IMG/VR virus record: IMGVR_UViG_2645727669_000017
Direction: 5' to 3' (one strand)
DNA: 40,004 bases
Source: a virus
Lineage: Duplodnaviria; Heunggongvirae; Uroviricota; Caudoviricetes
Translations under genes and position numbers: made by a program
Shown: positions 1,781 to 18,578 of the stretch, piece by piece
How positions within the stretch are numbered: the first letter of the stretch is position 1
How the letters are laid out: each line of letters begins with the position of its first letter
Notes under the pieces: generated by a model
Databases searched by the model: none
Seen by the model: the letters and a program-made list of their open reading frames with translations, nothing else
What the model was told of the DNA's origin: nothing

Positions 1781-3334
1781 TTATTGGTCAGGATATTTTG
1801 ATAGTTCAACTTCAAAAGTTGAATTTTTGTTTTTTAGAACATGAACAACACCTTTATAAAGTTGCCGTAATTTATTTACTGCATTTATATCAATGGAAGC
1901 AGGGGAGAATGCTCGGATAAGATTGTTGAAGATTTCCTTGGAGTAAGCAGATTTCTTCTTTTTATCAAGAGAGTCCATTCTTTTAATAATGATTTCTAAA
2001 AGATATGTCTTTTGATTGTTATGCATTTTTTCTGAAGTAATAATCAGATACATCATTTCCCCCAAGGTTTTAGAGGCAAAGAACTCTGGAGATTGCTCTT
2101 TATCTTCTGTTGTCCAGTTATCATAATTGAGGTGTTCTGTTGCTCCTGCCCATATATTACAACGGCTGATTAGCTCATATATTAAATAATCAAATCGCAT
2201 GGGGAACTCTCTATTTACATCTATGCTGCTAGATTTTTCATAGCTCTCAAGTATTTCCTTTAGGAAACAACGATAATACATGAGCCACATATTGTTTTTT
2301 GAGCGTTTGAATATTGCTGTAGATACCATAACATCGAAAAACGTCAATCCAACGAAGATTGGGCATTCCCAACGCTCATCACTACTTGAATAGTAATTAT
2401 CTGGATGATTGTAAAAGCAAGAACTCCCTTTTTGTTTTTTTATGTAGCTAATGACATAATTACCCACAGGTTTCCATATTTCTAAATCTATCGCCATGCG
2501 AATATCATTTAAATAAAAATTAAGCAAGGCATTACTTTCGTCGAGTGCATACTCCCCTGTATATGAACGATTTTGGTTGTCTCGTAACTCCCTATACATA
2601 ATGCTGTTTGGGTTAGATATTAAATACGTAAAGAAATTTGTATTATACTCACAATTATATCTAAGCTGTAAGCAGGTGGCCTTCATAGCTACGTGAGGGT
2701 AAGTATCAATTAGATAATGTGAAAAAACCTTTGATTTCAGAAGATTGGATATATTTAATTGAATATCATTTTGTCTTTTGTCTTCATAAGGGAAAAACTT
2801 TGACATAAATCTCCTGACTTTTTTGAATCGTAATTTTTTTACCTTCTCTTCATCCATTTCAATGGGAGATAATGAAGGGGCTAAGTAATTATGTACGCGA
2901 ACATACCATTTTTTATTGCTGATTATATTGAATAGCTGCTCGTGATATTTATCAAAAAGATATCCTAGTTGTTCTATTTTTTTTGCGCGCAGATATGTTT
3001 CTGAAACACTGATCCAACAGGTAAGGTTTGCTTTTGGTAGTATTTTGCCCTGTACTTTAATTCCAAAAAATATAATTATGATACAAAGACAAGTAAAAGC
3101 CAATGTATCTTCGTTAAAACCGAGTATCCAAGGGATCGGTTTTATCGGGAAAACACTTAGCAAAACCTTAGAATATATAACTGTTAATATTGTTGATATA
3201 AAAAAGATAATGAATACTAAATTAAATTTAGATATGCGTAACCTTAAATCAACACGTCTCTCATCCGTTAAGAGAGTATACCAAGCAATAAGTATGACGA
3301 AGACTGCTAGTAAACCATTGGCACCCATTATCAC
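1781..3334 (-). CDS. AT-rich membrane-anchored protein of unknown function (about 3 N-terminal TM helices plus ~420-aa soluble domain); candidate phage-defence or exclusion gene
   Basis: 517-aa ORF; hydrophobic N-terminus (LLAVFVILIAWYTLL, LVFIIFFISTILTVIY, LAFTCLCIIIIFFGI); N/K/I/Y/F-rich composition and visibly low GC versus flanking DNA; AT-rich promoter-like sequence upstream at 3335-3385. Confidence 0.6.
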   Translation of the reverse strand: MIMGANGLLAVFVILIAWYTLLTDERRVDLRLRISKFNLVFIIFFISTILTVIYSKVLLSVFPIKPIPWILGFNEDTLAFTCLCIIIIFFGIKVQGKILPKANLTCWISVSETYLRAKKIEQLGYLFDKYHEQLFNIISNKKWYVRVHNYLAPSLSPIEMDEEKVKKLRFKKVRRFMSKFFPYEDKRQNDIQLNISNLLKSKVFSHYLIDTYPHVAMKATCLQLRYNCEYNTNFFTYLISNPNSIMYRELRDNQNRSYTGEYALDESNALLNFYLNDIRMAIDLEIWKPVGNYVISYIKKQKGSSCFYNHPDNYYSSSDERWECPIFVGLTFFDVMVSTAIFKRSKNNMWLMYYRCFLKEILESYEKSSSIDVNREFPMRFDYLIYELISRCNIWAGATEHLNYDNWTTEDKEQSPEFFASKTLGEMMYLIITSEKMHNNQKTYLLEIIIKRMDSLDKKKKSAYSKEIFNNLIRAFSPASIDINAVNKLRQLYKGVVHVLKNKNSTFEVELSKYPDQ

Positions 3335-5564: not shown

Positions 5565-5915
5565 TCACTGGTTGCCTCCTTTGCGAATCTGTTCCGCCCA
5601 TTCTTCAAGGGATTTCTCCGCATATTCACCGGACAGACCATCAATCGGGTGCGGTTCATTAGCCAACTCATCTTTCGCTGACAGAATCATGCGTGTAACG
5701 TCGAAAACTTCACGTAAAGACTTATTGATAAATCCGTGATTGAACGCAGCAGCAAGGCGGCTTGCGGTATAGTTAATACCCTCGTTGCGAGCCTCAGCAC
5801 GTACTTCATCGAATTTACGCACCAGATACTCAGCATTTGTTTCATTCACTTTCAGATCTCGCGGTACACATTTCCCGCGAAGAAACCCTTCCATTTCGAA
5901 AACATTCATGCGCAT
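5565..5915 (-). CDS. Hypothetical early protein (possibly CPS-53 YfdS-like)
   Basis: 116-aa ORF; alternative start at 5909 forms an ATGA overlap with the upstream stop. Confidence 0.5.
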   Translation of the reverse strand: MRMNVFEMEGFLRGKCVPRDLKVNETNAEYLVRKFDEVRAEARNEGINYTASRLAAAFNHGFINKSLREVFDVTRMILSAKDELANEPHPIDGLSGEYAEKSLEEWAEQIRKGGNQ

Positions 5916-6442
5916 TTGCGTAACTCCGATAACTCGTTAAAACGTTCCATAAACATCCCGTAGGCATGGCCCGGTGCCAGTGGAATCACGTTGAACATCT
6001 CTGTTGCCGGGATGCCTTCCAGTACAGGCCAGAAAGAGCCATCATCAAGCCCGAGATCGCGGCGTTCGGTTGCCAGCATGATGAGATCGGCATATTTCAC
6101 GGGCGTACTCATAACCGGGGGTAACCCGTATTTCTCACGGATTACGGCGTCTATTTTTTCTTCCATCTGTTTATAGTCAGGAAGAAGGCGTTTCAGTGGA
6201 GCGGGGATGTCCTGGCAATACGCTTCTGTTGCATCATGCATTAACGCTTCAAAAGCAAATTCCTGCGGTACCAGCTGGCTGCAAAGAACCGCATGTTGGG
6301 CGACGCTGTAGAAGTGCGAAAGATGACCGGCAAAGCGACAGATATTTGAAAGGGAAACCGCGATATCGTTAATATCGATGTCGTCTTTATTTATCCTGTC
6401 ATAATAAAAATGCTTACCGGAAAAAGTTTTAATAAATGACAT
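5906..6442 (-). CDS. yfdR: HD-domain phosphohydrolase, likely a 5'-deoxynucleotidase (YfdR-like)
   Basis: Metal-binding motifs H..H and HD (VAQHAVL, LMHDATEAY); the 178-aa product from the internal ATG (MSFIKTF) with GGAG RBS matches the recalled size of E. coli YfdR. Confidence 0.7.
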   Translation of the reverse strand: MSFIKTFSGKHFYYDRINKDDIDINDIAVSLSNICRFAGHLSHFYSVAQHAVLCSQLVPQEFAFEALMHDATEAYCQDIPAPLKRLLPDYKQMEEKIDAVIREKYGLPPVMSTPVKYADLIMLATERRDLGLDDGSFWPVLEGIPATEMFNVIPLAPGHAYGMFMERFNELSELRKCA

Positions 6443-7458: not shown

Positions 7459-7821
7459 TTAATGACCTGCTGCGCGGAGTTTTCCGTCAGGTTCACCGGC
7501 AAGAGTCAGTAATTGTCCCTGGTCTTCCTGCAGAATAGTCAGGCGACCACCGCGATTGACATACATCGGCGTTTCGGTGGTGTCTTCTTCGGAAATTTTC
7601 CCGCGGTTAGTCGGGCGAACATATGAGAGTTTGTGTTTGATTTTCACACGGTTCTCATCAAATGGTTCGATTTCCAGGTTGAGTGAGACCTTACCTTTGG
7701 TTTTCGTGTTCATCACACCTGAAGCGACTTCACTGAGAACTGCGCCGATTTTGGTTTCAAATACGCCGCCGTCCAGCTCCCCGATAAATGCCTGCACATC
7801 AGTACTGCGTTCGCTAGCCAT
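7459..7821 (-). CDS. yfdP: Hypothetical early protein (YfdP-like), first gene of the leftward early operon
   Basis: 120-aa product from internal ATG (MASERSTDV) preceded by GAGGAG RBS; the longer track ORF (to 8052) runs into a structured non-coding leader. Confidence 0.5.
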   Translation of the reverse strand: MASERSTDVQAFIGELDGGVFETKIGAVLSEVASGVMNTKTKGKVSLNLEIEPFDENRVKIKHKLSYVRPTNRGKISEEDTTETPMYVNRGGRLTILQEDQGQLLTLAGEPDGKLRAAGH

Positions 7822-7869
7822 TTTGCTGCTCCTCATCATATCGACCCTGCAAGGTCGGTTGGTTTCTCC

Positions 7870-7957
7870 ACAAAACAGAGAAGAACACCTGCGGTGGCAG
7901 CCGCCCGGGTGGATTGGGTTATGAGCCCGTCGTCCGGTGATGCTCTTCTCTGTTTTG
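7870..7957 (-). ncRNA. Long imperfect hairpin (15-bp arms) in the untranslated leader of the leftward early operon; candidate structured regulatory RNA
   Basis: ACAAAACAGAGAAGA (7870-7884) is the exact reverse complement of TCTTCTCTGTTTTGT (7943-7957); ~58-nt GC-rich interior with further complementarity. Confidence 0.35.
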
Positions 7958-8429
7958 TAAAAAGAGCGGTACCAGCCGGAAGCAAGTGTACAAACTGGTA
8001 CCGCCAAAGCAGTGGCTGTTGTGGTGGGCTTGTCACTTAAGCGTATGGTCAACCTGACAACCCGGTGTCCTCAACGGGGAAGGAATAACCCCGCCATACT
8101 TACCGCCGCGCCATTTCGCGGATTACCACAACGCTGAGAGCACTTAGCCAGTTACGGCACCACACTTTGTCGCGGTTCCATAAATGCCCTCATCGTTGCA
8201 CCCTGGTCTCTTCCCAGGCGTCAAACCGAATCGCCACGCTGGTTAGGCGTCTTATCAGCATCCTCATTGACTTGCACATTCCGGCTACCTGGTTTGTTTG
8301 CCCGAGCAAGGAGTGGATTGTCCCCTTTAACGTCCCCAGACCGCTAACGACGCATGTGCCATACGCCGTGTTACAACCAAATTTTGTTAGTACCTTGTTT
8401 GTAGGTCTGGAAAGAAAGATAAAATGAAG

Positions 8430-8524: not shown

Positions 8525-9217
8525 TTAATTGTGTCGCTTAAGGGTTTGTGACTGACTGATTAAGACCTTTCCAAAGACCATAAACCGATGTTCGTTTTCG
8601 CTGGTAATTCCCCATTCGCGGTAAATCTGATTATCAGAAATTACCAGCAGTTTATCAGGTATCATTTGCAGTCGTTTGACGTAAATTTTATCATCAAAAC
8701 CAAATACATATATACCATCCCCATCAAACTGATTGATACTGATATCAACGAAGATGAGATCTCCTGGCTCAATGGTTGGACACATACTGTCCCCACGAAC
8801 GTTGATAACTTTAATGTGATTTGCTGGTCGTCCACCAAACATCGATACAGCATTATCAGTTCTGTATTCAATGGCATGAATCACATCAATGACATCACCG
8901 CCCTGGATAAGGCCATTTCCCGCACTGGCACTGACATCCAGCATTTCAATACGGAATACATCCTTCACCTGCGCAACATCCTCACTAATACTGTTTTTAC
9001 ATACAGTATTACTTTTGAGGTCTGAGGTAAAGAGATCAGCAATATCAACACCTAAGCTCCTGGCAATATTACTCAGGGCTTGTTCAGTGAATTGTTTCTG
9101 CTTACCTGTTTCGAGGCGCGAGATATTCGCCGCATCCACTCCTATTGCTTCAGCGAGATCGGCGATTTTCATGTTCTTCGCCTGGCGAAGTTGTCTGACT
9201 CGATTTCCTATGTTCAT
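8525..9217 (-). CDS. CI-like prophage repressor (XRE HTH + S24 LexA-type autopeptidase domain)
   Basis: 230-aa ORF; N-terminal HTH (RVRQLRQAKNMKIADLAEAIGVDAANISRLETGK); C-terminal S24 signature (GDSMCPTI...KRL); divergent from the cro-like gene. Confidence 0.9.
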   Translation of the reverse strand: MNIGNRVRQLRQAKNMKIADLAEAIGVDAANISRLETGKQKQFTEQALSNIARSLGVDIADLFTSDLKSNTVCKNSISEDVAQVKDVFRIEMLDVSASAGNGLIQGGDVIDVIHAIEYRTDNAVSMFGGRPANHIKVINVRGDSMCPTIEPGDLIFVDISINQFDGDGIYVFGFDDKIYVKRLQMIPDKLLVISDNQIYREWGITSENEHRFMVFGKVLISQSQTLKRHN

Positions 9218-11276: not shown

Positions 11277-11497
11277 TCCGGAATATTTTCAAACGGTTTA
11301 CCAATCAGACTTTCCGTTGTCCTCGTCCGGGTCAGTGGTACACCACACCTGCAGGGCATGTTCTACGTGTTAGCCTGGTTGACCGTGAATGTCAGAAGGT
11401 GATTTGTGAACCGCTGGGCCGTAATTACCGCGTCAGTATGCCGCTTATAGCCTTTCGCTCCGGAAAAAACATGAAGCATCTCGGAGGTGCTGCATGA
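11273..11497 (+). CDS. Small hypothetical protein
   Basis: 74-aa ORF with ATGA overlap to the Rha stop and overlapping the next gene start. Confidence 0.35.
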   Translation: MIRNIFKRFTNQTFRCPRPGQWYTTPAGHVLRVSLVDRECQKVICEPLGRNYRVSMPLIAFRSGKNMKHLGGAA

Positions 11498-12312
11498 GTA
11501 TGGAGCTGATGGTTAAAGCGATGAAAATTCGAGTGGGTAATCCATTGCGAAAACTGGTTCTGATCAAGCTGGCTGATAATGCCAGCGATCAGGGGGAGTG
11601 CTGGCCCAGCTACCAGCATATTGCTGACCAGTGCGAGATTAGCAAACGTTCTGTGATGAATCATATTGCGGCCCTTTGTGAGTCCGGGCTGGTAAAAAAA
11701 GTCACCCGGAAAGGTGAAAAAGGTAACTCAAGTAATATCTATCTCCTTCATCTGGATGGTGCAGGAGATTCACTAGGGGGTAGTGCAAATAATTCACTAT
11801 CTGGCGCAGCAAATTCACCAGGTAGTGCAGGAGTTGCACCAGGGGGTAGTGCAGGAGATTCACCCAGAACCAGTCACTCTTTTGAACCAGTCAAAGAACC
11901 AGTCAATGAACCAATAGCTGTTGGTGCATCAGTTGATGAGTCTGTGCGAGTTCGTTCAAACCGACCGGAATACTCTCCGGAGTTTGAGCAGGCATGGCTG
12001 GCATATCCCAAACGTGCTGGTGGCAATTCAAAATCTGCAGCCTTCAAAGCCTGGAAAGCCCGTTTGAATGAGGGGGTAAACCCCGAAACCATGCTGGAAG
12101 GTGTGAAACGCTACGCGGGCTGGGTATCTGCGATGGGTAACAGCGGCACACAATTTGTGAAACAGGCTGTCACGTTCTTTGGTCCGGATCGTCATTTCGA
12201 AGAATCCTGGGAAGTTCCTGCGGTATCTGCAGCCAGACGTGAGGACCCGTACTTCAAAGCCAGTTACGACAACGTGGACTACAGCCAGATCCCGGCAGGA
12301 TTCAGGGGGTGA
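11494..12312 (+). CDS. Replication initiation protein (O-like, N-terminal winged HTH) with internal origin iterons
   Basis: 272-aa ORF; N-terminal HTH (SYQHIADQCEISKRSVMNHIAALCESGLVKK); Gly/Ser/Ala-rich repetitive linker encoded by direct DNA repeats; position after cro/cII. Confidence 0.65.
   Translation: MSMELMVKAMKIRVGNPLRKLVLIKLADNASDQGECWPSYQHIADQCEISKRSVMNHIAALCESGLVKKVTRKGEKGNSSNIYLLHLDGAGDSLGGSANNSLSGAANSPGSAGVAPGGSAGDSPRTSHSFEPVKEPVNEPIAVGASVDESVRVRSNRPEYSPEFEQAWLAYPKRAGGNSKSAAFKAWKARLNEGVNPETMLEGVKRYAGWVSAMGNSGTQFVKQAVTFFGPDRHFEESWEVPAVSAARREDPYFKASYDNVDYSQIPAGFRG
11759..11910. repeat. Iteron-like direct repeats inside the replication gene; candidate ori
   Basis: About four copies of GG(T/G)AGTGCAGGAG(A/T)T(T/G)CAC between 11759 and 11866, followed by three GAACCAGTC repeats (11866-11910). 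Confidence 0.5.
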
Positions 12313-12314
12313 TC

Positions 12315-12803
12315 ATGAGTCTTTTGAATGAAGTTCAGAAATACATTGAAGCCCATCCGGGGTGTACTTCCGGAGACATTGCGGATGCTTTTGCAGGTTA
12401 CTCACGGCAGCGCGTTCTGCAGTATGCAAGCAAGTTACGTCAGAGTGGGCGTGTGGCTCACCGTTGTGAAGGAGATACACGCAGACATTTCCCGCGCCTG
12501 ACTGAGAGAGCGCAGGAGCTGGAACCACAACCAGTTCGTGAAACCAGACCTGTGCGCAATTTCTATGTCGGCACTAACGACCCGCGGGTGATTTTGTGCC
12601 TGACCCGCCAGGCGGAAGAACTGGAGTCAAGGGGCTTATACCGTCGTGCTGCAACCGTGTGGATGGCGGCATTCCGTGAAAGCCACTCCCAGCCAGAACG
12701 AAACAATTTTCTGGCACGTCGTGAGCGGTGCTTACGGAAAAGCAGCAAGCGCGCTGCATCGGGTGAAGAGTGGTATCTGTCAGGGAATTACGTGGGGGCT
12801 TAA
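12315..12803 (+). CDS. PerC-family transcriptional regulator homologue with N-terminal winged-helix region
   Basis: PerC-like motif LESRGLYRRAATVWMAAF...RRERCLRK; ATG 12315 with AGGGGG RBS; TAATG overlap with the next gene. Confidence 0.5.
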   Translation: MSLLNEVQKYIEAHPGCTSGDIADAFAGYSRQRVLQYASKLRQSGRVAHRCEGDTRRHFPRLTERAQELEPQPVRETRPVRNFYVGTNDPRVILCLTRQAEELESRGLYRRAATVWMAAFRESHSQPERNNFLARRERCLRKSSKRAASGEEWYLSGNYVGA

Positions 12804-13456
12804 TGAGTAATAAATATTGCCGGGCGCTGGTGGAACTGCGGAACAAACCAGCCCATGAACTGAAGGAAGTGGGCGATCAGTGGCGCACGCCGGATAACAT
12901 TTTCTGGGGAATTAACACCCTGTTTGGCCCGTTTGTCCTGGATCTGTTTACTGACGGTGATAACGCCAAATGTACCGCGTATTACACGGCGGAAGACAAC
13001 GCGCTGGCGCATGACTGGTCAGAACGTCTTGCGGAGCTTAAAGGTGCTGCCTTTGGTAATCCCCCATACAGCCGCGCCAGTCAGCATGAGGGGCAATACA
13101 TCACCGGCATGCGTTACATCATGAAACATGCCAGTGCCATGCGTGATAAAGGCGGGCGCTATGTTTTCCTGATCAAAGCTGCCACCTGCGAAGTGTGGTG
13201 GCCGGAAGATGCAGATCATATTGCTTTTATTCGCGGGCGTATTGGTTTTGAACTGCCTGCCTGGTTTATCCCGAAAGATGAGAAGCAGGTGCCGACAGGC
13301 GCTTTCTTCGCTGGTGCTATTGCTGTTTTCGACAAGACCTGGAAGGGACCGGCAATCAGCTACATCGGGCGCGATGAACTTGAGGCATGTGGTGAGGCGT
13401 TTCTGGCGCAGGTTCGCCAGCAGGCAGAAAAACTGGTCAGGGAGATGGCGGCATGA
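12803..13456 (+). CDS. Phage DNA N6-adenine methyltransferase (Dam-like)
   Basis: NPPY catalytic motif (GNPPYS) within a ~217-aa product; start from TAATG overlap at 12803. Confidence 0.8.
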   Translation: MSNKYCRALVELRNKPAHELKEVGDQWRTPDNIFWGINTLFGPFVLDLFTDGDNAKCTAYYTAEDNALAHDWSERLAELKGAAFGNPPYSRASQHEGQYITGMRYIMKHASAMRDKGGRYVFLIKAATCEVWWPEDADHIAFIRGRIGFELPAWFIPKDEKQVPTGAFFAGAIAVFDKTWKGPAISYIGRDELEACGEAFLAQVRQQAEKLVREMAA

Positions 13457-13779
13457 CGACGTTAACTCAATGCCAGCAGCAGGTGCTGGATATGCTGATT
13501 TCTTATCAGAAAGAACGTGGCTTCCCGCCAACCAATCAGGAGGTGGCAACCATGCTGGGATACCGTTCAGTGAATGCAGCGGTGGAGCATCTTCGCGCAC
13601 TGGAGAAAAAAGGCGTCATCACGATAAAGCGTGGCGTGGCCCGGGGGATCACGCTTCATACCGCGGTGAAGGACGACGACAGCGAGGCGGTCGGGATTAT
13701 CCGCTCACTGCTTGCCGGTGAGGAAAACGCAAGGCTGCGTGCAACCCACTGGTTACATGAGAGAGGCTTGAAAGCATGA
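13453..13779 (+). CDS. LexA-like DNA-binding-domain protein lacking the S24 protease domain
   Basis: 108-aa ORF; N-terminus (LTQCQQQVLDMLISYQKERGFPPTNQEVATMLGYRSVNAAVEHLRALEKKGVI) parallels the LexA N-terminal winged HTH; no Ser/Lys dyad domain. Confidence 0.6.
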   Translation: MTTLTQCQQQVLDMLISYQKERGFPPTNQEVATMLGYRSVNAAVEHLRALEKKGVITIKRGVARGITLHTAVKDDDSEAVGIIRSLLAGEENARLRATHWLHERGLKA

Positions 13780-14165
13780 AGCTGATCCTGCCTTTTCCGC
13801 CCAGCGTGAACACGTACTGGCGACACCCCAACAAAGGGGCGTTTGCTGGTAAGAGCCTGATAAGCTCGGCGGGGCGAAAATTCCAGAGCGCGGCGTGCGC
13901 AGCAATAGTTGAGCAGTTACGTCGTCTGCCGAAACCAACGTCGGCACCTGCTTCAGTGGAGATCGTGTTGTTTCCTCCGGATAACCGGATCCGCGATCTG
14001 GACAACTATAACAAGGCGCTGTTTGACGCCCTGACCCATGCGGGTGTGTGGGAAGACGACAGTCAGGTGAAAAGAATGCTGGTGGAGTGGGGACCGGTTA
14101 TCCCGAAAGGGAAGGTCGAGATCACTATCAGTAAGTACGAGAAAACGGCGGGTGCAGCCGCCTGA
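13776..14165 (+). CDS. rusA: RusA Holliday junction resolvase
   Basis: 129-aa ORF with RusA-like LPFPPSVNTYWRH and DLDNYNKALFDALT motifs. Confidence 0.85.
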   Translation: MKLILPFPPSVNTYWRHPNKGAFAGKSLISSAGRKFQSAACAAIVEQLRRLPKPTSAPASVEIVLFPPDNRIRDLDNYNKALFDALTHAGVWEDDSQVKRMLVEWGPVIPKGKVEITISKYEKTAGAAA

Positions 14166-14184
14166 TCAAGAGGAGAAACGAAGT

Positions 14185-14994
14185 ATGAATAATCTGATGG
14201 TCATTGATGGTATTGAAGTTCGTCGTGATGCTTATGGGCGTTACAGCCTGAACGATCTGCATCGCGCAGCAGTAGCATCTGGTGCAAATGCCAGAACCAA
14301 GGAGCCGGGAAAGTTTCTTTCCAGCCAACAAACTGTTGAGCTTGTTCATGAATTGACCAACACCCAGAATTTGGGTGTTGACCCGGTGAGTGTGATTCAT
14401 GGGGGAAATGAACGGGGAACGTATGTCTGCAAGGAACTGGTGTATGCCTATGCAATGTGGATCAGCCCGTCATTCCATCTGAAGGTGATCCGTACTTTCG
14501 ATATGGTAACCAGCGCACCGGAAAAATTATCCGGACAGGCTGCTGACAAGATGCAGGCTGGCGTGATCCTGCTGGACTTTATGCGCCGGGAGTTAAACCT
14601 GTCTAACTCTTCAGTGCTTGGTGCCTGTCAGAAACTCCAGGAGGCTGTTGGCTTACCGAATCTGGCACCGCGCTATGCCATTGATGCTCCTGCTGATGCA
14701 CACGATGGCTCAAGTCGCCCGACACTGTCACTGAGTGCACTGCTGAAACAGTATGGTATACGCCTGACGGCTAATCAGGCATATCACCAGATGGTGAAAC
14801 TGGGGATCGTCGAGCAGCGCGAACGATACAGCCGTACCGCGATTAACAACATCAAAAAATTCTGGTCGCTGACAGCGAAAGGCTGCATGTTCGGCAAGAA
14901 CATCACCAGTCCCGCAAATCCGCGCGAGACGCAGCCGCATTTCTTCGAATCCCGATTCTCTGAGCTGTTAAAGCTGCTCGATACCGTTCATTGA
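14185..14994 (+). CDS. KilA-N domain protein
   Basis: N-terminal KilA-N signature (VIHGGNERGTYVCKELVYAYAMWISPSFHLKVIRTF); internal ATG 14185 preceded by AAGAGGAG RBS. Confidence 0.7.
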   Translation: MNNLMVIDGIEVRRDAYGRYSLNDLHRAAVASGANARTKEPGKFLSSQQTVELVHELTNTQNLGVDPVSVIHGGNERGTYVCKELVYAYAMWISPSFHLKVIRTFDMVTSAPEKLSGQAADKMQAGVILLDFMRRELNLSNSSVLGACQKLQEAVGLPNLAPRYAIDAPADAHDGSSRPTLSLSALLKQYGIRLTANQAYHQMVKLGIVEQRERYSRTAINNIKKFWSLTAKGCMFGKNITSPANPRETQPHFFESRFSELLKLLDTVH

Positions 14995-14995
14995 G

Positions 14996-15991
14996 GTGAC
15001 CGTGAGAGCACTACTGACCCCTGAAATTGCCCCGCGTATGGGGATCGTATTGTTCAGGCCAGGTTCAGAGCTGATGCCCCTGTTTATGCAGGGGCGTGTC
15101 CTGCTGGAGCCTGAGCCGGAGCGTTATTCATCTTTCGCCAGTGGTGCCGTTCCGGCGGCATCACAACCGCTGGCGGATGATCCTGCCGTTCGGGCCGTGT
15201 TCCGCAATGAGGCAGTGATCCGTCGTGCTGGTGGCGTGGAATGTCTTGAAAGCTGGTTACTTCGTGAAAAAGGCTGCCAGTGGCCTCATTCCGACTGGCA
15301 CAGCGAGAACATGACCACAATGCGACACGCTCCGGGTGCAATCCGTCTGTGCTGGCACTGCGATAACCAGCTGCGCGATCAGTTCACGGAACGGCTGGAA
15401 TCAATGGCAACGGATAACTGTGCCCGCTGGGTGTTGTCTGTTGTGCGTCGGGATCTCGGTTTTGATGACAGTCACGTTGTGACAATGCCGGAACTGTGCT
15501 GGTGGCTGATTCGTAATGATCTGGCGGATGCCTTACCGGAAAGTGCAGCCCGTAAGGCACTGAGATTACCGAAGCCTGTTGTGCCGTCTGTTACCCGGGA
15601 AAGTGACCTTGTGCCTTCGGTTCCTGCCACCAGCATCATCCAGGATAAGGCGAAAAAGGTGCTGGCGCTGAAAGTGGATCCGGAGTCGCCGGAGTCTTTT
15701 ATGTTACGCCCAAAACGTCGCCGCTGGGTTAATGAAAAGTACACGCGCTGGGTTAAGACACAGCCGTGTGCATGTTGTGGAAAGCCCGCTGATGATCCCC
15801 ACCACCTGATAGGTCACGGTCAGGGTGGAATGGGAACAAAAGCGCATGACCTTTTTGTGTTGCCTTTGTGCAGAAAGCATCACGACGAGCTGCATGCGGA
15901 TACCGTGGCATTTGAAGAGAAGTATGGCTCCCAGCTGGAGCTGATATTTCGTTTTATCGATCGTGCGCTGGCAATTGGCGTGCTGGCCTGA
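14996..15991 (+). CDS. DUF968-like prophage protein with C-terminal HNH-type zinc-finger nuclease motif
   Basis: 331-aa ORF (GTG start); C-terminal [13 protein letters not shown]...HHDELH typical of HNH/DUF968 proteins of lambdoid nin regions. Confidence 0.6.
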
Positions 15992-16008
15992 TTTTGTGGA
16001 GAAAGTTG

Positions 16009-16374
16009 ATGCGTGATATTCAAATGGTTCTTGAACGTTGGGGGGCATGGGTGGCAAATAATCACGAGGATGTCACCTGGTCGTCTATTGCTGCAGGATT
16101 TAAAGGACTAATCCCTTCAAAAGTAAAATCCCGCCCGCAATGTTGTGACGATGACGCGATGATCATTTGTGGATGCATGGCTCGCCTGAAAAAGAACAAC
16201 AGCGATTTGCACGATTTATTAGTGGATTATTATGTAGGTGGTATGACTTTTATGGCGCTTGCCCGTAAACATGGGCGTTCTGATTGCTGGGTTGGGCGTT
16301 TATTGCAAAAGGCTGAAGGTGTAGTTGATGGCATGTTAATGATGTTAGAAATTGAGCTAGAGATGGATCGTTAG
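16009..16374 (+). CDS. Late-gene antiterminator Q (short Q family)
   Basis: ~121-aa product from internal ATG ([14 protein letters not shown]...) with Cys-rich zinc-binding core ([16 protein letters not shown]); last gene before the late region. Confidence 0.65.
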
Positions 16375-16454: not shown

Positions 16455-16901
16455 TTAAGGTTTTAATTCATCAAGACGTTGTTGGATAGTGTTTTTGCTT
16501 GCGTTGTCTGTTATAGACATTTGTTGTACTTGCCCCATTGCCATTTGAGTTTCCATCCACATATCGGCCCACACTTTTGTATCGTTATTAACTTGAGCGA
16601 TAGTAAATCTGACTTTTGATACCGGGGTTGTTGAATAGGCATTGCCGATTAACATTTGTCCAAAAACAGCAGAGCCGCCTTCCAGTTCTTTACCACATAT
16701 AACACTGCTGTTATCCGCGTTGTAAATTATCAACCCTCTACTATTGCAGTAATTCACAAGGGCATCTTTGACTTTATCTTTTGTCGTATTTTGATAAACC
16801 CCCTCAGGTTTTCCTGATTGAGTTTTCTTTATCAATGGTACGGAAGAAGTACAACCTGAAATGATAGTTGCGCTAAGTAATAGTACAGTCATTTTATTCA
16901 T
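16455..16901 (-). CDS. Lipoprotein moron of unknown function, antisense to late transcription between Q and the lysis genes
   Basis: 148-aa ORF with lipoprotein signal peptide and lipobox (LLLSATIISGC); AT-rich; opposite orientation to flanking genes. Confidence 0.6.
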   Translation of the reverse strand: MNKMTVLLLSATIISGCTSSVPLIKKTQSGKPEGVYQNTTKDKVKDALVNYCNSRGLIIYNADNSSVICGKELEGGSAVFGQMLIGNAYSTTPVSKVRFTIAQVNNDTKVWADMWMETQMAMGQVQQMSITDNASKNTIQQRLDELKP

Positions 16902-17147
16902 GTTTCTTATCCATTGTTAAGGGCATACCCACACAATTATTTTTATTGGAGATGAATAATCAACCGTTTACAATCGTAAAAAATCAAATATGCTGTTAAG
17001 AGTGGTTACTTCGCCACACAACTTAAACCCGCCGCTGAGCGGTTTTTTTGTACCTGTAAACCTGGTGCAGTACAGTAAACACGCTGGTGGTCGTGAATAC
17101 TGACTTTTTATCTTGCTGGCTTTTTAGACAAGAGTTATTGGTATGTC

Positions 17148-17525: not shown

Positions 17526-18578
17526 ATGAAAAATACTGTAAAAATAAACAGTGTTGATTTAATCAACGCTGATTGCCTGCATTTTATTCAGTCCCTGCCT
17601 GATGATTCCATTGACCTGATTGTTACCGATCCGCCGTACTTCAAGGTGAAACCCAACGGCTGGGACAATCAGTGGAAAGGGGACGAAGATTACCTTAAGT
17701 GGCTGGACCACTGTCTGGCCCAGTTCTGGCGGGTGTTAAAACCTGCCGGAAGCCTTTACCTGTTCTGTGGGCATCGCCTGGCATCTGATATTGAGATCAT
17801 GATGCGTGAACGTTTCAACGTGCTTAACCATATCATCTGGGCGAAGCCGTCCGGACGTTGGAATGGGTGTAATAAAGAAAGTCTGCGTGCATATTTTCCA
17901 GCCACAGAGCGCGTTCTGTTTGCTGAACATTACCAGGGGCCATATCGCGGCAAAAGTGACGGCTATGCGGCAAAAGAAAGGGAACTCAAACAGCACATAA
18001 TGGCACCGCTGATTTCGTATTTCAGGGATGCTCGTGCCGAACTGGGTATAACGGCAAAACAAATTGCCGAAGCCACAGGTAAGAAAAATATGGTTTCCCA
18101 CTGGTTTGGTGCCAGTCAGTGGCAGTTGCCGAATGAGGCTGACTATCGGAAGTTACAGGCACTGTTTTCCCGTATAGCGGCAGAGAAGTTTCAGGAACAA
18201 CAACTGGAACAACCACACCACCAGCTGGTGGCATCTTATGATTCACTGAATCGCAAATATTCTGAATTGCTGGATGAGTTTAAATCTCTCCGGCGCTATT
18301 TCTCCGTATCAGTCTCCGTGCCTTATACCGATGTCTGGATGCATAAACCCGTTCAGTTCTACCCGGGTAAACATCCGTGTGAGAAACCTGCGGATATGCT
18401 CCGGCAAATAATCAATGCCAGTAGTCGACCTGGTGATCTGGTTGCTGATTTTTTTATGGGATCCGGTTCCACAATAAAAGCAGCAATGGCGCTGGGGCGT
18501 CGGGCCTTAGGTGTTGAGCTTGAGTCAGAGCGGTTTAACCAGACAGTGAAAGAGATAAACGAGCTGGTGGGGAAATAA
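17526..18578 (+). CDS. Orphan N6-adenine/N4-cytosine DNA methyltransferase
   Basis: 350-aa ORF with DPPY catalytic motif (IVTDPPYF) near the N-terminus and a C-terminal AdoMet-binding region (DFFMGSGST); no adjacent restriction enzyme. Confidence 0.85.
   Translation: MKNTVKINSVDLINADCLHFIQSLPDDSIDLIVTDPPYFKVKPNGWDNQWKGDEDYLKWLDHCLAQFWRVLKPAGSLYLFCGHRLASDIEIMMRERFNVLNHIIWAKPSGRWNGCNKESLRAYFPATERVLFAEHYQGPYRGKSDGYAAKERELKQHIMAPLISYFRDARAELGITAKQIAEATGKKNMVSHWFGASQWQLPNEADYRKLQALFSRIAAEKFQEQQLEQPHHQLVASYDSLNRKYSELLDEFKSLRRYFSVSVSVPYTDVWMHKPVQFYPGKHPCEKPADMLRQIINASSRPGDLVADFFMGSGSTIKAAMALGRRALGVELESERFNQTVKEINELVGK

Follow-up and report, generated by a model that had tools for sequence, protein, structure and literature searches.

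Background

The protein described here has two close counterparts in the literature. One is the N-terminal domain of E. coli LexA (residues 1-84, the part left after cleavage; PDB 1LEA and 3JSO). Some operator binding and repression persist in this natural fragment (PMC10584840), and full SOS induction needs its removal by ClpXP (PMC10584840; PMC3159453). The other is gp6 of the Bacillus tectivirus GIL01, a truncated LexA homologue. It binds GaCACAnnTGTGaC, a palindrome at about -43.5 of the late promoter P3, and activates this promoter (PMC6182141). Gp6 is 44% identical to the LexA of its host, yet it recognizes a different palindrome, and its residue K38 was shown to matter (PMC6182141). This precedent shows that phages capture the LexA DNA-binding domain for regulation of their own. 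The recognition helix of gp6, read from its translation, is SHKTAHRY and differs from the host type. Predicted structures of phage proteins include many short ones, spread over different phages, that have a LexA DNA-binding domain and nothing else, with examples in mycobacteriophage Wildcat, the tectiviruses and uncultured Caudovirales.

This work is about one such protein, LexN, encoded in a near-complete lambdoid prophage. The window, by which we mean the whole stretch of 40,004 nucleotides that was analysed, is the IMG/VR record IMGVR_UViG_2645727669_000017. LexN shares the fold and register of the E. coli LexA N-terminal domain. It differs from that domain in being a separate phage gene and not a cleavage product, and in ending with a conserved helical hairpin where the LexA fragment ends with a VAA degron. 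The degron directs the LexA fragment to ClpXP.

LexN and gp6 are alike in being phage-encoded LexA DNA-binding domains without the catalytic domain, expressed early (in the case of LexN, as its operon suggests). Gp6 however is only 66 residues long and has no C-terminal hairpin, whereas LexN carries an extra 40 residues of linker and hairpin. BLASTP finds no alignment between the two proteins at E <= 100, so we regard them as independent captures, of a Gram-positive-type LexA in the case of gp6 and of a gamma-proteobacterial-type LexA in the case of LexN. LexN has kept the host-type recognition helix, unlike gp6 with its non-LexA palindrome. The two settings differ as well: GIL01 is a linear plasmid-prophage under the control of host LexA and gp7, while the LexN prophage has its own S24 CI-type repressor. 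The MecI/BlaI, MarR/MepR and Rrf2 proteins follow a similar plan, a winged helix and then dimerising helices, but they have no sequence relationship with LexN.

It is important to realize what is already established. The gene family has been catalogued and is very common, and truncated LexA homologues encoded by phages are a known kind. We found no functional study of an enterobacterial LexN protein in the literature.

Results

The first-pass annotation, made from the sequence alone, placed an open reading frame for 108 amino acids at 13453-13779, and we confirm that position exactly. The gene lies on the + strand, begins with ATG and includes its stop codon within these coordinates. A Shine-Dalgarno sequence, GGGAG, stands at 13440-13444, 8 nt 5' of the ATG. 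The start codon shares ATGA with the TGA stop of the upstream Dam gene, and the ATG of rusA shares ATGA with the TGA of LexN in the same way. Compared with a Citrobacter homologue that is 84% identical in amino acids, the NG86 dN/dS is 0.09 over the whole gene, 0.08 over residues 1-69 and 0.06 over residues 70-108. LexN is a real gene, and both of its halves are under purifying selection.

The family is large. LexN is found in 2233 of the 5426 complete E. coli genomes (41%), at 95-99% nucleotide identity and in up to 4 copies per genome, and it is carried by at least 50 sequenced phages. The carriers include mEp460, SfV (as orf42), SfII, SfIV, cdtI, 2H10, Ayreon, 1720a-02 and the Stx2a, Stx2c and Stx2k converting phages. 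The genera in which homologues were found are Escherichia, Shigella, Salmonella, Citrobacter, Cronobacter, Kosakonia, Enterobacter, Cedecea, Klebsiella and Hafnia. In PHROG the family is phrog_362, annotated as 'transcriptional repressor' under transcription regulation; residues 1-107 of LexN match positions 1-105 of its 106 (E 1.5e-59), and the identity of LexN to the phage and E. coli entries of that group is 95-100%. Most members are 106-112 amino acids long, and the few of 135-165 appear to have N-terminal extensions. The databases also hold Dam-LexN fusions (P0023, P0092, P0098), frameshifted variants and fragments. At NCBI the lambdoid members go under 'LexA family transcriptional regulator' or 'LexA family protein'. 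Automatic pipelines have also given these proteins the names 'LexA DNA binding domain protein', 'RecA-mediated autopeptidase' or 'SOS-response repressor and protease LexA', and some members have been called Rrf2. The labels that speak of a protease or an autopeptidase are wrong because LexN does not have the protease domain.

The absence of that domain, which had been noticed on first reading together with the resemblance to the LexA winged helix-turn-helix, holds up in profile searches. Pfam LexA_DNA_bind (PF01726) aligns over all of its 65 positions with residues 1-65 of LexN (E 2.9e-19, 69 bits against a cutoff of 23.7), while no Pfam match to Peptidase_S24 (PF00717) was found in LexN, which stops at residue 108. 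The NCBIfam equivalog model for lexA, TIGR00498, is matched over positions 1-91 of 203 at 70.8 bits, below its cutoff of 110.95. Aligned by BLASTP with E. coli LexA (the copy from locus L001), LexN is 43% identical over residues 1-90 and ungapped over 1-69. A sequence search of the PDB with LexN returned LexA entries exclusively.

Structure leads to the same place. We modelled LexN with AlphaFold2 from an alignment of 52 sequences (pLDDT 83, pTM 0.56), and this model replaced one made from the single sequence (pLDDT 70). The winged helix-turn-helix occupies residues 1-69 (13453..13659, + strand), where pLDDT is about 87; the predicted helices are at 6-22, 28-35 and 40-52 and the wing strands at 56-58 and 66-68. 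Foldseek superposes the model on DNA-bound E. coli LexA, 3JSO, with an rmsd of 0.8 Å over 67 residues at 51% identity. The best structures other than LexA have E >= 0.02, and among them MepR and MecI are weak full-length matches with an rmsd of 7-10 Å. Since the strong fold matches are LexA structures alone, the likeness is specific to LexA, and the suspicion that it might reflect only a generic HTH can be dismissed. A PADLOC match of LexN to CARF3 is weak (E 3.6e-4), reflects the winged helix-turn-helix level only and is not meaningful. To judge from both alignment and model, the N-terminal part of LexN is a genuine LexA winged helix of the gamma-proteobacterial type.

What such a domain might bind depends on its recognition helix. 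In LexN this is codons 39-46 (13567..13590, + strand, by the ungapped alignment with LexA), which read SVNAAVEH where E. coli LexA has SPNAAEEH. In a passage of PMC13416735 that quotes Knegtel 1995, residues S39, N41, A42, E44 and E45 of E. coli LexA are given as DNA-binding. The contact of N41 is water-mediated (PMC5999292). Four of the five cited residues, S39, N41, A42 and E45, are identical in LexN and the fifth, E44, is V. LexN also shares H46, K53 and R64-G65-I66 with E. coli LexA, while R28 of LexA is N in LexN. The signature SxNAAxEH marks the gamma- and beta-proteobacterial type of LexA, which recognizes CTGT-N8-ACAG. With four of five contacts kept, it is plausible that LexN occupies LexA operators. 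Across the family S39 is invariant and N41, H46 and R64 are nearly so. Position 44 may be V, A, F, T, L or Y, and is never acidic. Positions 42, 43 or 45 are altered in members P0086, P0124, P0168 and P0242, and P0086 reads T42/I43/A44/G45. The recognition helix thus differs in some members. Binding to SOS boxes should not be taken for granted throughout the family, whose DNA specificity may have drifted.

The remainder of the protein is not LexA. Residues 70-77, TAVKDDDS (13660..13683, + strand), form an acidic and flexible linker, with pLDDT < 50 at 71-75. Residues 78-103 (13684..13761, + strand) are predicted to fold as a helical hairpin with helices at 78-88 and 93-103 (pLDDT about 89), a putative dimerisation module. 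The family motif is EAVxxIRALLAGExxARxRAxxWLxxRG, in which A97 and L101 are invariant; it is kept over at least 10 enterobacterial genera and in homologues down to about 40% identity. No relatives of the hairpin were found in Pfam or among the PDB sequences. The dimer interface of LexA sits in its C-terminal domain, and in LexN the hairpin would take over this role. A 7-mer in the tail that matches LexA 192-198 is a chance match (BLASTP, E 0.37). The BLASTP alignment with LexA does pass through the hinge, and it puts LLAGE of LexN (A88-G89) opposite the LexA cleavage site VAAGE. The family however has AG, VG, AN, ER, TR, SG, DD, AC, AE or AD at this position, and the model predicts a helix here. 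We therefore reject the idea that LLAGE is a pseudo-substrate or a mimic of the cleavage site.

The prophage is organized in the lambdoid manner. It runs from the integrase (386-1609) through the CI-type repressor, an HTH plus Peptidase_S24 protein encoded at 8525..9217 on the - strand, a CII-like gene, Rha, a replication gene that begins at 11494, PerC and a phage Dam (PF05869; 12770..13456, +) to LexN. Directly downstream of LexN is the RusA Holliday-junction resolvase (13776..14165, +), and then come KilA-N, DUF968, antiterminator Q (15994-16374), an N6/N4 DNA methylase of the late region (17526-18578), the lysis genes, the terminase and onward. Genes adjoin or overlap throughout 11494-16374, and a simple scan of the + strand from 9.3 to 16.2 kb found no promoter-like site, a weak result since the scan missed pR too. 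The packing of the genes and the lack of a promoter-like site suggest that LexN belongs to the delayed-early genes of the rightward operon. It would be silent in a lysogen and come on after derepression or infection. LexN lies inside this lytic operon, 4.2 kb downstream of the CI-type repressor, and since that S24 protein fills the immunity role, LexN is not the immunity repressor.

The neighborhood is conserved. At all homologous loci retrieved, including those whose homologues are only 41-48% identical, LexN is just upstream of rusA. Beyond rusA a Rha/ANT or KilA-N gene may or may not be present, and DUF968 and an antiterminator come next. The junction of LexN with rusA is usually a 4-bp overlap, and two loci, L009 and L011, have a short ORF in between. 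The types of immunity, replication and antiterminator modules vary among the loci that carry LexN. No palindrome common to the co-inherited LexN-rusA-DUF968-Q module was found in five diverged loci. With the modules varying and no palindrome shared, what stays constant is the enterobacterial host and its vocabulary of LexA boxes. In the window, a promoter and terminator pair resembling pR'/tR' at 16967-17050 contains no CTGT palindrome.

The window holds 3 exact CTGT-N8-ACAG sequences where about 0.6 would be expected by chance, and 2 of the 3 are strong. The first candidate operator is the canonical LexA box TACTGTTTTTACATACAGTA at 8989..9008, within the codons for the linker of the CI-type repressor. 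It agrees with the consensus at 17 of 20 positions, and its arms are perfect over 9 nt, TAATACTGT-N8-ACAGTATTA. ST64B, phiNP, 1720a-02 and a metagenomic relative (L004) preserve the half-sites of this box while the spacer codons change. The second is the LexA box TACTGTAAAAATAAACAGTG at 17534..17553, lying over codons 3-9 of the N6/N4 methylase gene, and it is conserved in phiNP, 1720a-02, phiP27, Hafnia phage yong2 and a Citrobacter prophage (L013). LexN may bind both candidates. When palindromes of the form CTGT-Nx-ACAG were counted in eight loci only a spacing of 8 was enriched, which speaks against other spacings of these half-sites. The boxes and the gene do not always travel together. 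ST64B and phiNP have boxes and no LexN, and in the Enterobacter prophages L005-L008 no box lies within 12-16 kb of LexN. We can thus reject an obligatory co-occurrence of LexN with phage LexA boxes; the two assort independently.

Phage 1720a-02, the 'bully phage', carries LexN at 99% identity. It suppresses a co-resident prophage, and the published mapping of that effect is to Cro and not to LexN.

Discussion

We tentatively favor the idea that LexN is a LexA surrogate made in the delayed-early part of the lytic program and insensitive to RecA, which re-occupies CTGT-N8-ACAG operators after induction, and we would give this rather less than an even chance. The proposed mechanism is as follows. 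The hairpin would dimerise LexN, standing in for the C-terminal domain of LexA, and the dimer would bind operators of the CTGT-N8-ACAG type. Because LexN lacks the S24 domain, it should not respond to RecA* and should not undergo the self-cleavage that RecA* stimulates. RecA* could then not inactivate LexN, which would take over the operators once host LexA is destroyed in induction. Part of the host SOS regulon would be silenced again, along with the phage's own two LexA boxes, and possibly also LexA-controlled morons and competing LexA-gated elements. The outcome would be repression wherever a box overlaps a promoter.

In its fuller form the argument is that this RecA-proof phage LexA closes the host SOS regulon again after lytic commitment and re-binds the boxes in the cI gene and the methylase gene, and here our confidence is a little lower still. 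More speculatively, such a LexN would also re-bind LexA-gated competitors, namely the antirepressors of other prophages, colicins and SOS toxins. The points in favor of a LexA surrogate are the LexA-specific domain, the four of five contacts, the selection on both domains, the operon context, the constancy of the enterobacterial host and its LexA boxes while phage modules differ, the enrichment of the 8-nt spacing alone and the two conserved boxes. The points against it are a position 44 that is never acidic, the altered positions 42, 43 or 45 of several members, the precedent of gp6, the independent assortment of boxes and LexN, the mapping of the 1720a-02 interference to Cro and a half-site spacing that would depend on a putative hairpin dimer.

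This proposal differs in part from what the first-pass annotation had in mind. Its idea that LexN could occupy LexA operators is plausible. It also suggested that LexN could tune the SOS response that triggers prophage induction, and for LexN's own prophage we find this poorly supported, with LexN deep in the early operon and a separate S24 CI-type repressor in place. Given that placement and that repressor, LexN should appear only after derepression, and so it would act downstream of the trigger. The same annotation raised heterodimerisation with LexA, which is unlikely given that LexN has no LexA C-terminal domain and that its hairpin is without known relatives.

The most serious alternative is a phage-specific transcription factor with an operator of its own, a captured LexA DNA-binding domain of altered specificity and dimer geometry, which like gp6 would activate or repress a phage promoter and leave the SOS boxes alone. 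Gp6, with its own palindrome and its activation of P3, is a direct precedent, and LexA-DBD-only proteins occur commonly across many groups of phages. The loss of E44 throughout the family and the variable positions 42, 43 and 45 suggest a drift in specificity, the new C-terminal module could impose a different half-site spacing, and PHROG 362 is classed under transcription regulation. Yet we found no candidate operator of this kind, the five diverged loci have no palindrome common to the module and no CTGT/ACAG spacing besides 8 is enriched. With flanking modules that differ among carriers it is difficult to see where a conserved phage target would sit, and Q already controls the late genes of lambdoid phages. 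We consider this alternative somewhat less probable than a LexA surrogate. A different kind of alternative takes its lead from the neighbors and makes LexN an accessory of DNA metabolism in a nin-like region, binding DNA with perhaps low specificity and aiding or targeting RusA or the HNH-like nuclease DUF968, or aiding replication. Many genes of the lambda nin region act on recombination, the place just upstream of rusA is held at every locus examined with DUF968 beyond, and the usual 4-bp overlap means a translational coupling that suggests stoichiometric co-expression. It is difficult to reconcile this with the base-contacting residues of a sequence-specific repressor being kept under strong purifying selection. 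The other ORF between LexN and rusA in L009 and L011 also speaks against it, in lambdoid mosaics the order of genes often reflects position and not function, and we know of no RusA partner of LexN's kind. We regard an accessory role as improbable.

Two further explanations remain. In one it is a poison or decoy of LexA, which forms mixed complexes with LexA, the heterodimers of the first-pass annotation, or offers A88-G89 in LLAGE as a pseudo-substrate and in this way alters the cleavage or DNA binding of LexA. The alignment that continues through the hinge to LLAGE/VAAGE invites this idea, and because the N-terminal domains of LexA can cooperate on DNA by themselves, one operator could conceivably take up a mixed pair of LexA and LexN. 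But the Ala-Gly pair is not conserved in the family and belongs to a segment predicted to be a helix of the hairpin, the C-terminal domain of LexA is absent and the hairpin is unlike it save for the chance 7-mer. We would be very surprised if this proved to be the function. In the other LexN has no function and is what decay has left of a full-length gene for LexA or a CI-like protein. Frameshifted and fused variants in the databases (the three Dam-LexN fusions and the fragments) are what one could point to. A dN/dS of 0.09 overall and 0.06 in the non-LexA tail, a constant length in most members, a tail motif kept over at least 10 genera, a presence in 41% of complete E. coli genomes at 95-99% identity, a good Shine-Dalgarno sequence and coupled start and stop codons all argue the opposite. 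Selection and conservation effectively refute this last explanation.

Conclusions

Whichever reading is true, entries now named 'LexA repressor and protease' or 'RecA-mediated autopeptidase' should be named 'LexA DNA-binding-domain protein'. LexN is a worthwhile target since Stx-converting phages and 41% of complete E. coli genomes carry it and it has kept the host-type helix, unlike gp6. If it turns out to have its own operator, it would be a second and independent case of a phage re-purposing LexA's DNA-binding domain, after GIL01 gp6.

If instead LexN binds SOS boxes, then very common prophages of E. coli and Shigella would end or reshape the SOS response and not just exploit it, by means of a repressor that DNA damage cannot remove. 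The Stx2a, Stx2c and Stx2k converting phages are among the carriers. Such an effect would matter for how Shiga toxin is released after antibiotics, for SOS mutagenesis in lysogens and for the competition among co-resident prophages and colicin plasmids. It would also provide a ready-made LexA-type tool that cannot be cleaved. Should the idea of a RecA-proof LexA be true, nearly half of E. coli strains, Stx2 lysogens included, would carry a built-in 'SOS off' switch that shapes the induction of toxin phages and the competition between prophages.

LexA boxes in the repressor and methylase genes

The CI-type S24 repressor gene of the window (8525-9217, reverse strand) contains a near-consensus LexA box, that is a CTGT-N8-ACAG palindrome, which reads TAATACTGT-N8-ACAGTATTA and lies at 8986-9011, within codons ~70-77 in the part that codes for the linker. 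The CTGT/ACAG half-sites of this box are retained in ST64B sb38, phiNP, 1720a-02 and a metagenomic relative, and the codons of the spacer vary. Because the half-sites stay constant while the spacer codons change, the comparison of these sequences suggests selection at the DNA level for a candidate LexA operator within the repressor gene. No promoter adjoining the box at 8986-9011 is evident.

The N6/N4 DNA methylase gene of the late region (17526-18578) has another LexA box, TACTGTAAAAATAAACAGTG at window 17534-17553, which overlaps its codons 3-9. This box occupies the same position in the methylase genes of phiNP, 1720a-02, phiP27, Hafnia phage yong2 and a Citrobacter prophage, and the genes that have it in place are 74-87% identical at the DNA level. 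The methylase may be an SOS-controlled gene in lysogens.

Both conserved boxes are present in phiNP. According to a preprint, the co-resident 'bully phage' 1720a-02 blocks the induction of phiNP through its own Cro. A 99% identical copy of LexN, the 108-aa protein with a LexA-type DNA-binding domain, lies at 5627-5953 of 1720a-02 (L016); the preprint is silent on any part that LexN may play. Several database proteins (P0131, P0132, P0149, P0152, P0153 and others) have two tandem LexA-type DNA-binding domains per chain without an S24 domain, and such chains are an alternative route to a non-cleavable 'LexA dimer'.

A possible late-promoter unit and ORFs without a family match

Downstream of the antiterminator gene Q, a promoter-like site (16967-16994) precedes a strong intrinsic terminator (17029-17050), an arrangement that gives window 16947-17050 the appearance of a pR'/tR' late-promoter unit. 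A reverse-strand ORF of 148 aa (16455-16901), which matches no family, separates the unit from Q. Two other reverse-strand ORFs, one of 517 aa (1781-3334) that adjoins the integrase gene (386-1609) and one of 197 aa (7459-8052), have no match in Pfam or PADLOC; the former could be a moron or unknown accessory gene.

LexA boxes in other prophages

At the edge of the E. coli STEC309 Stx2k prophage (L001), a Panacea-domain gene on the boundary is directly preceded by tandem LexA boxes, ACCTGTGTATATGTACAGTT and TACTGGTTATAAACACAGTG (7977-8019), and the host lexA-dinF locus is only ~4 kb from the prophage. L009 is a prophage of the Enterobacter/Cedecea type. One of its LexA boxes (7560-7579) is between an RNase_A_bac toxin/CdiI_2 immunity moron in reverse orientation and the operon with the LexN homologue; the second (12164-12183) adjoins a reverse-strand 202-aa ORF past the lysozyme gene. 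LexA-gated morons therefore seem to be common in prophages of this kind.
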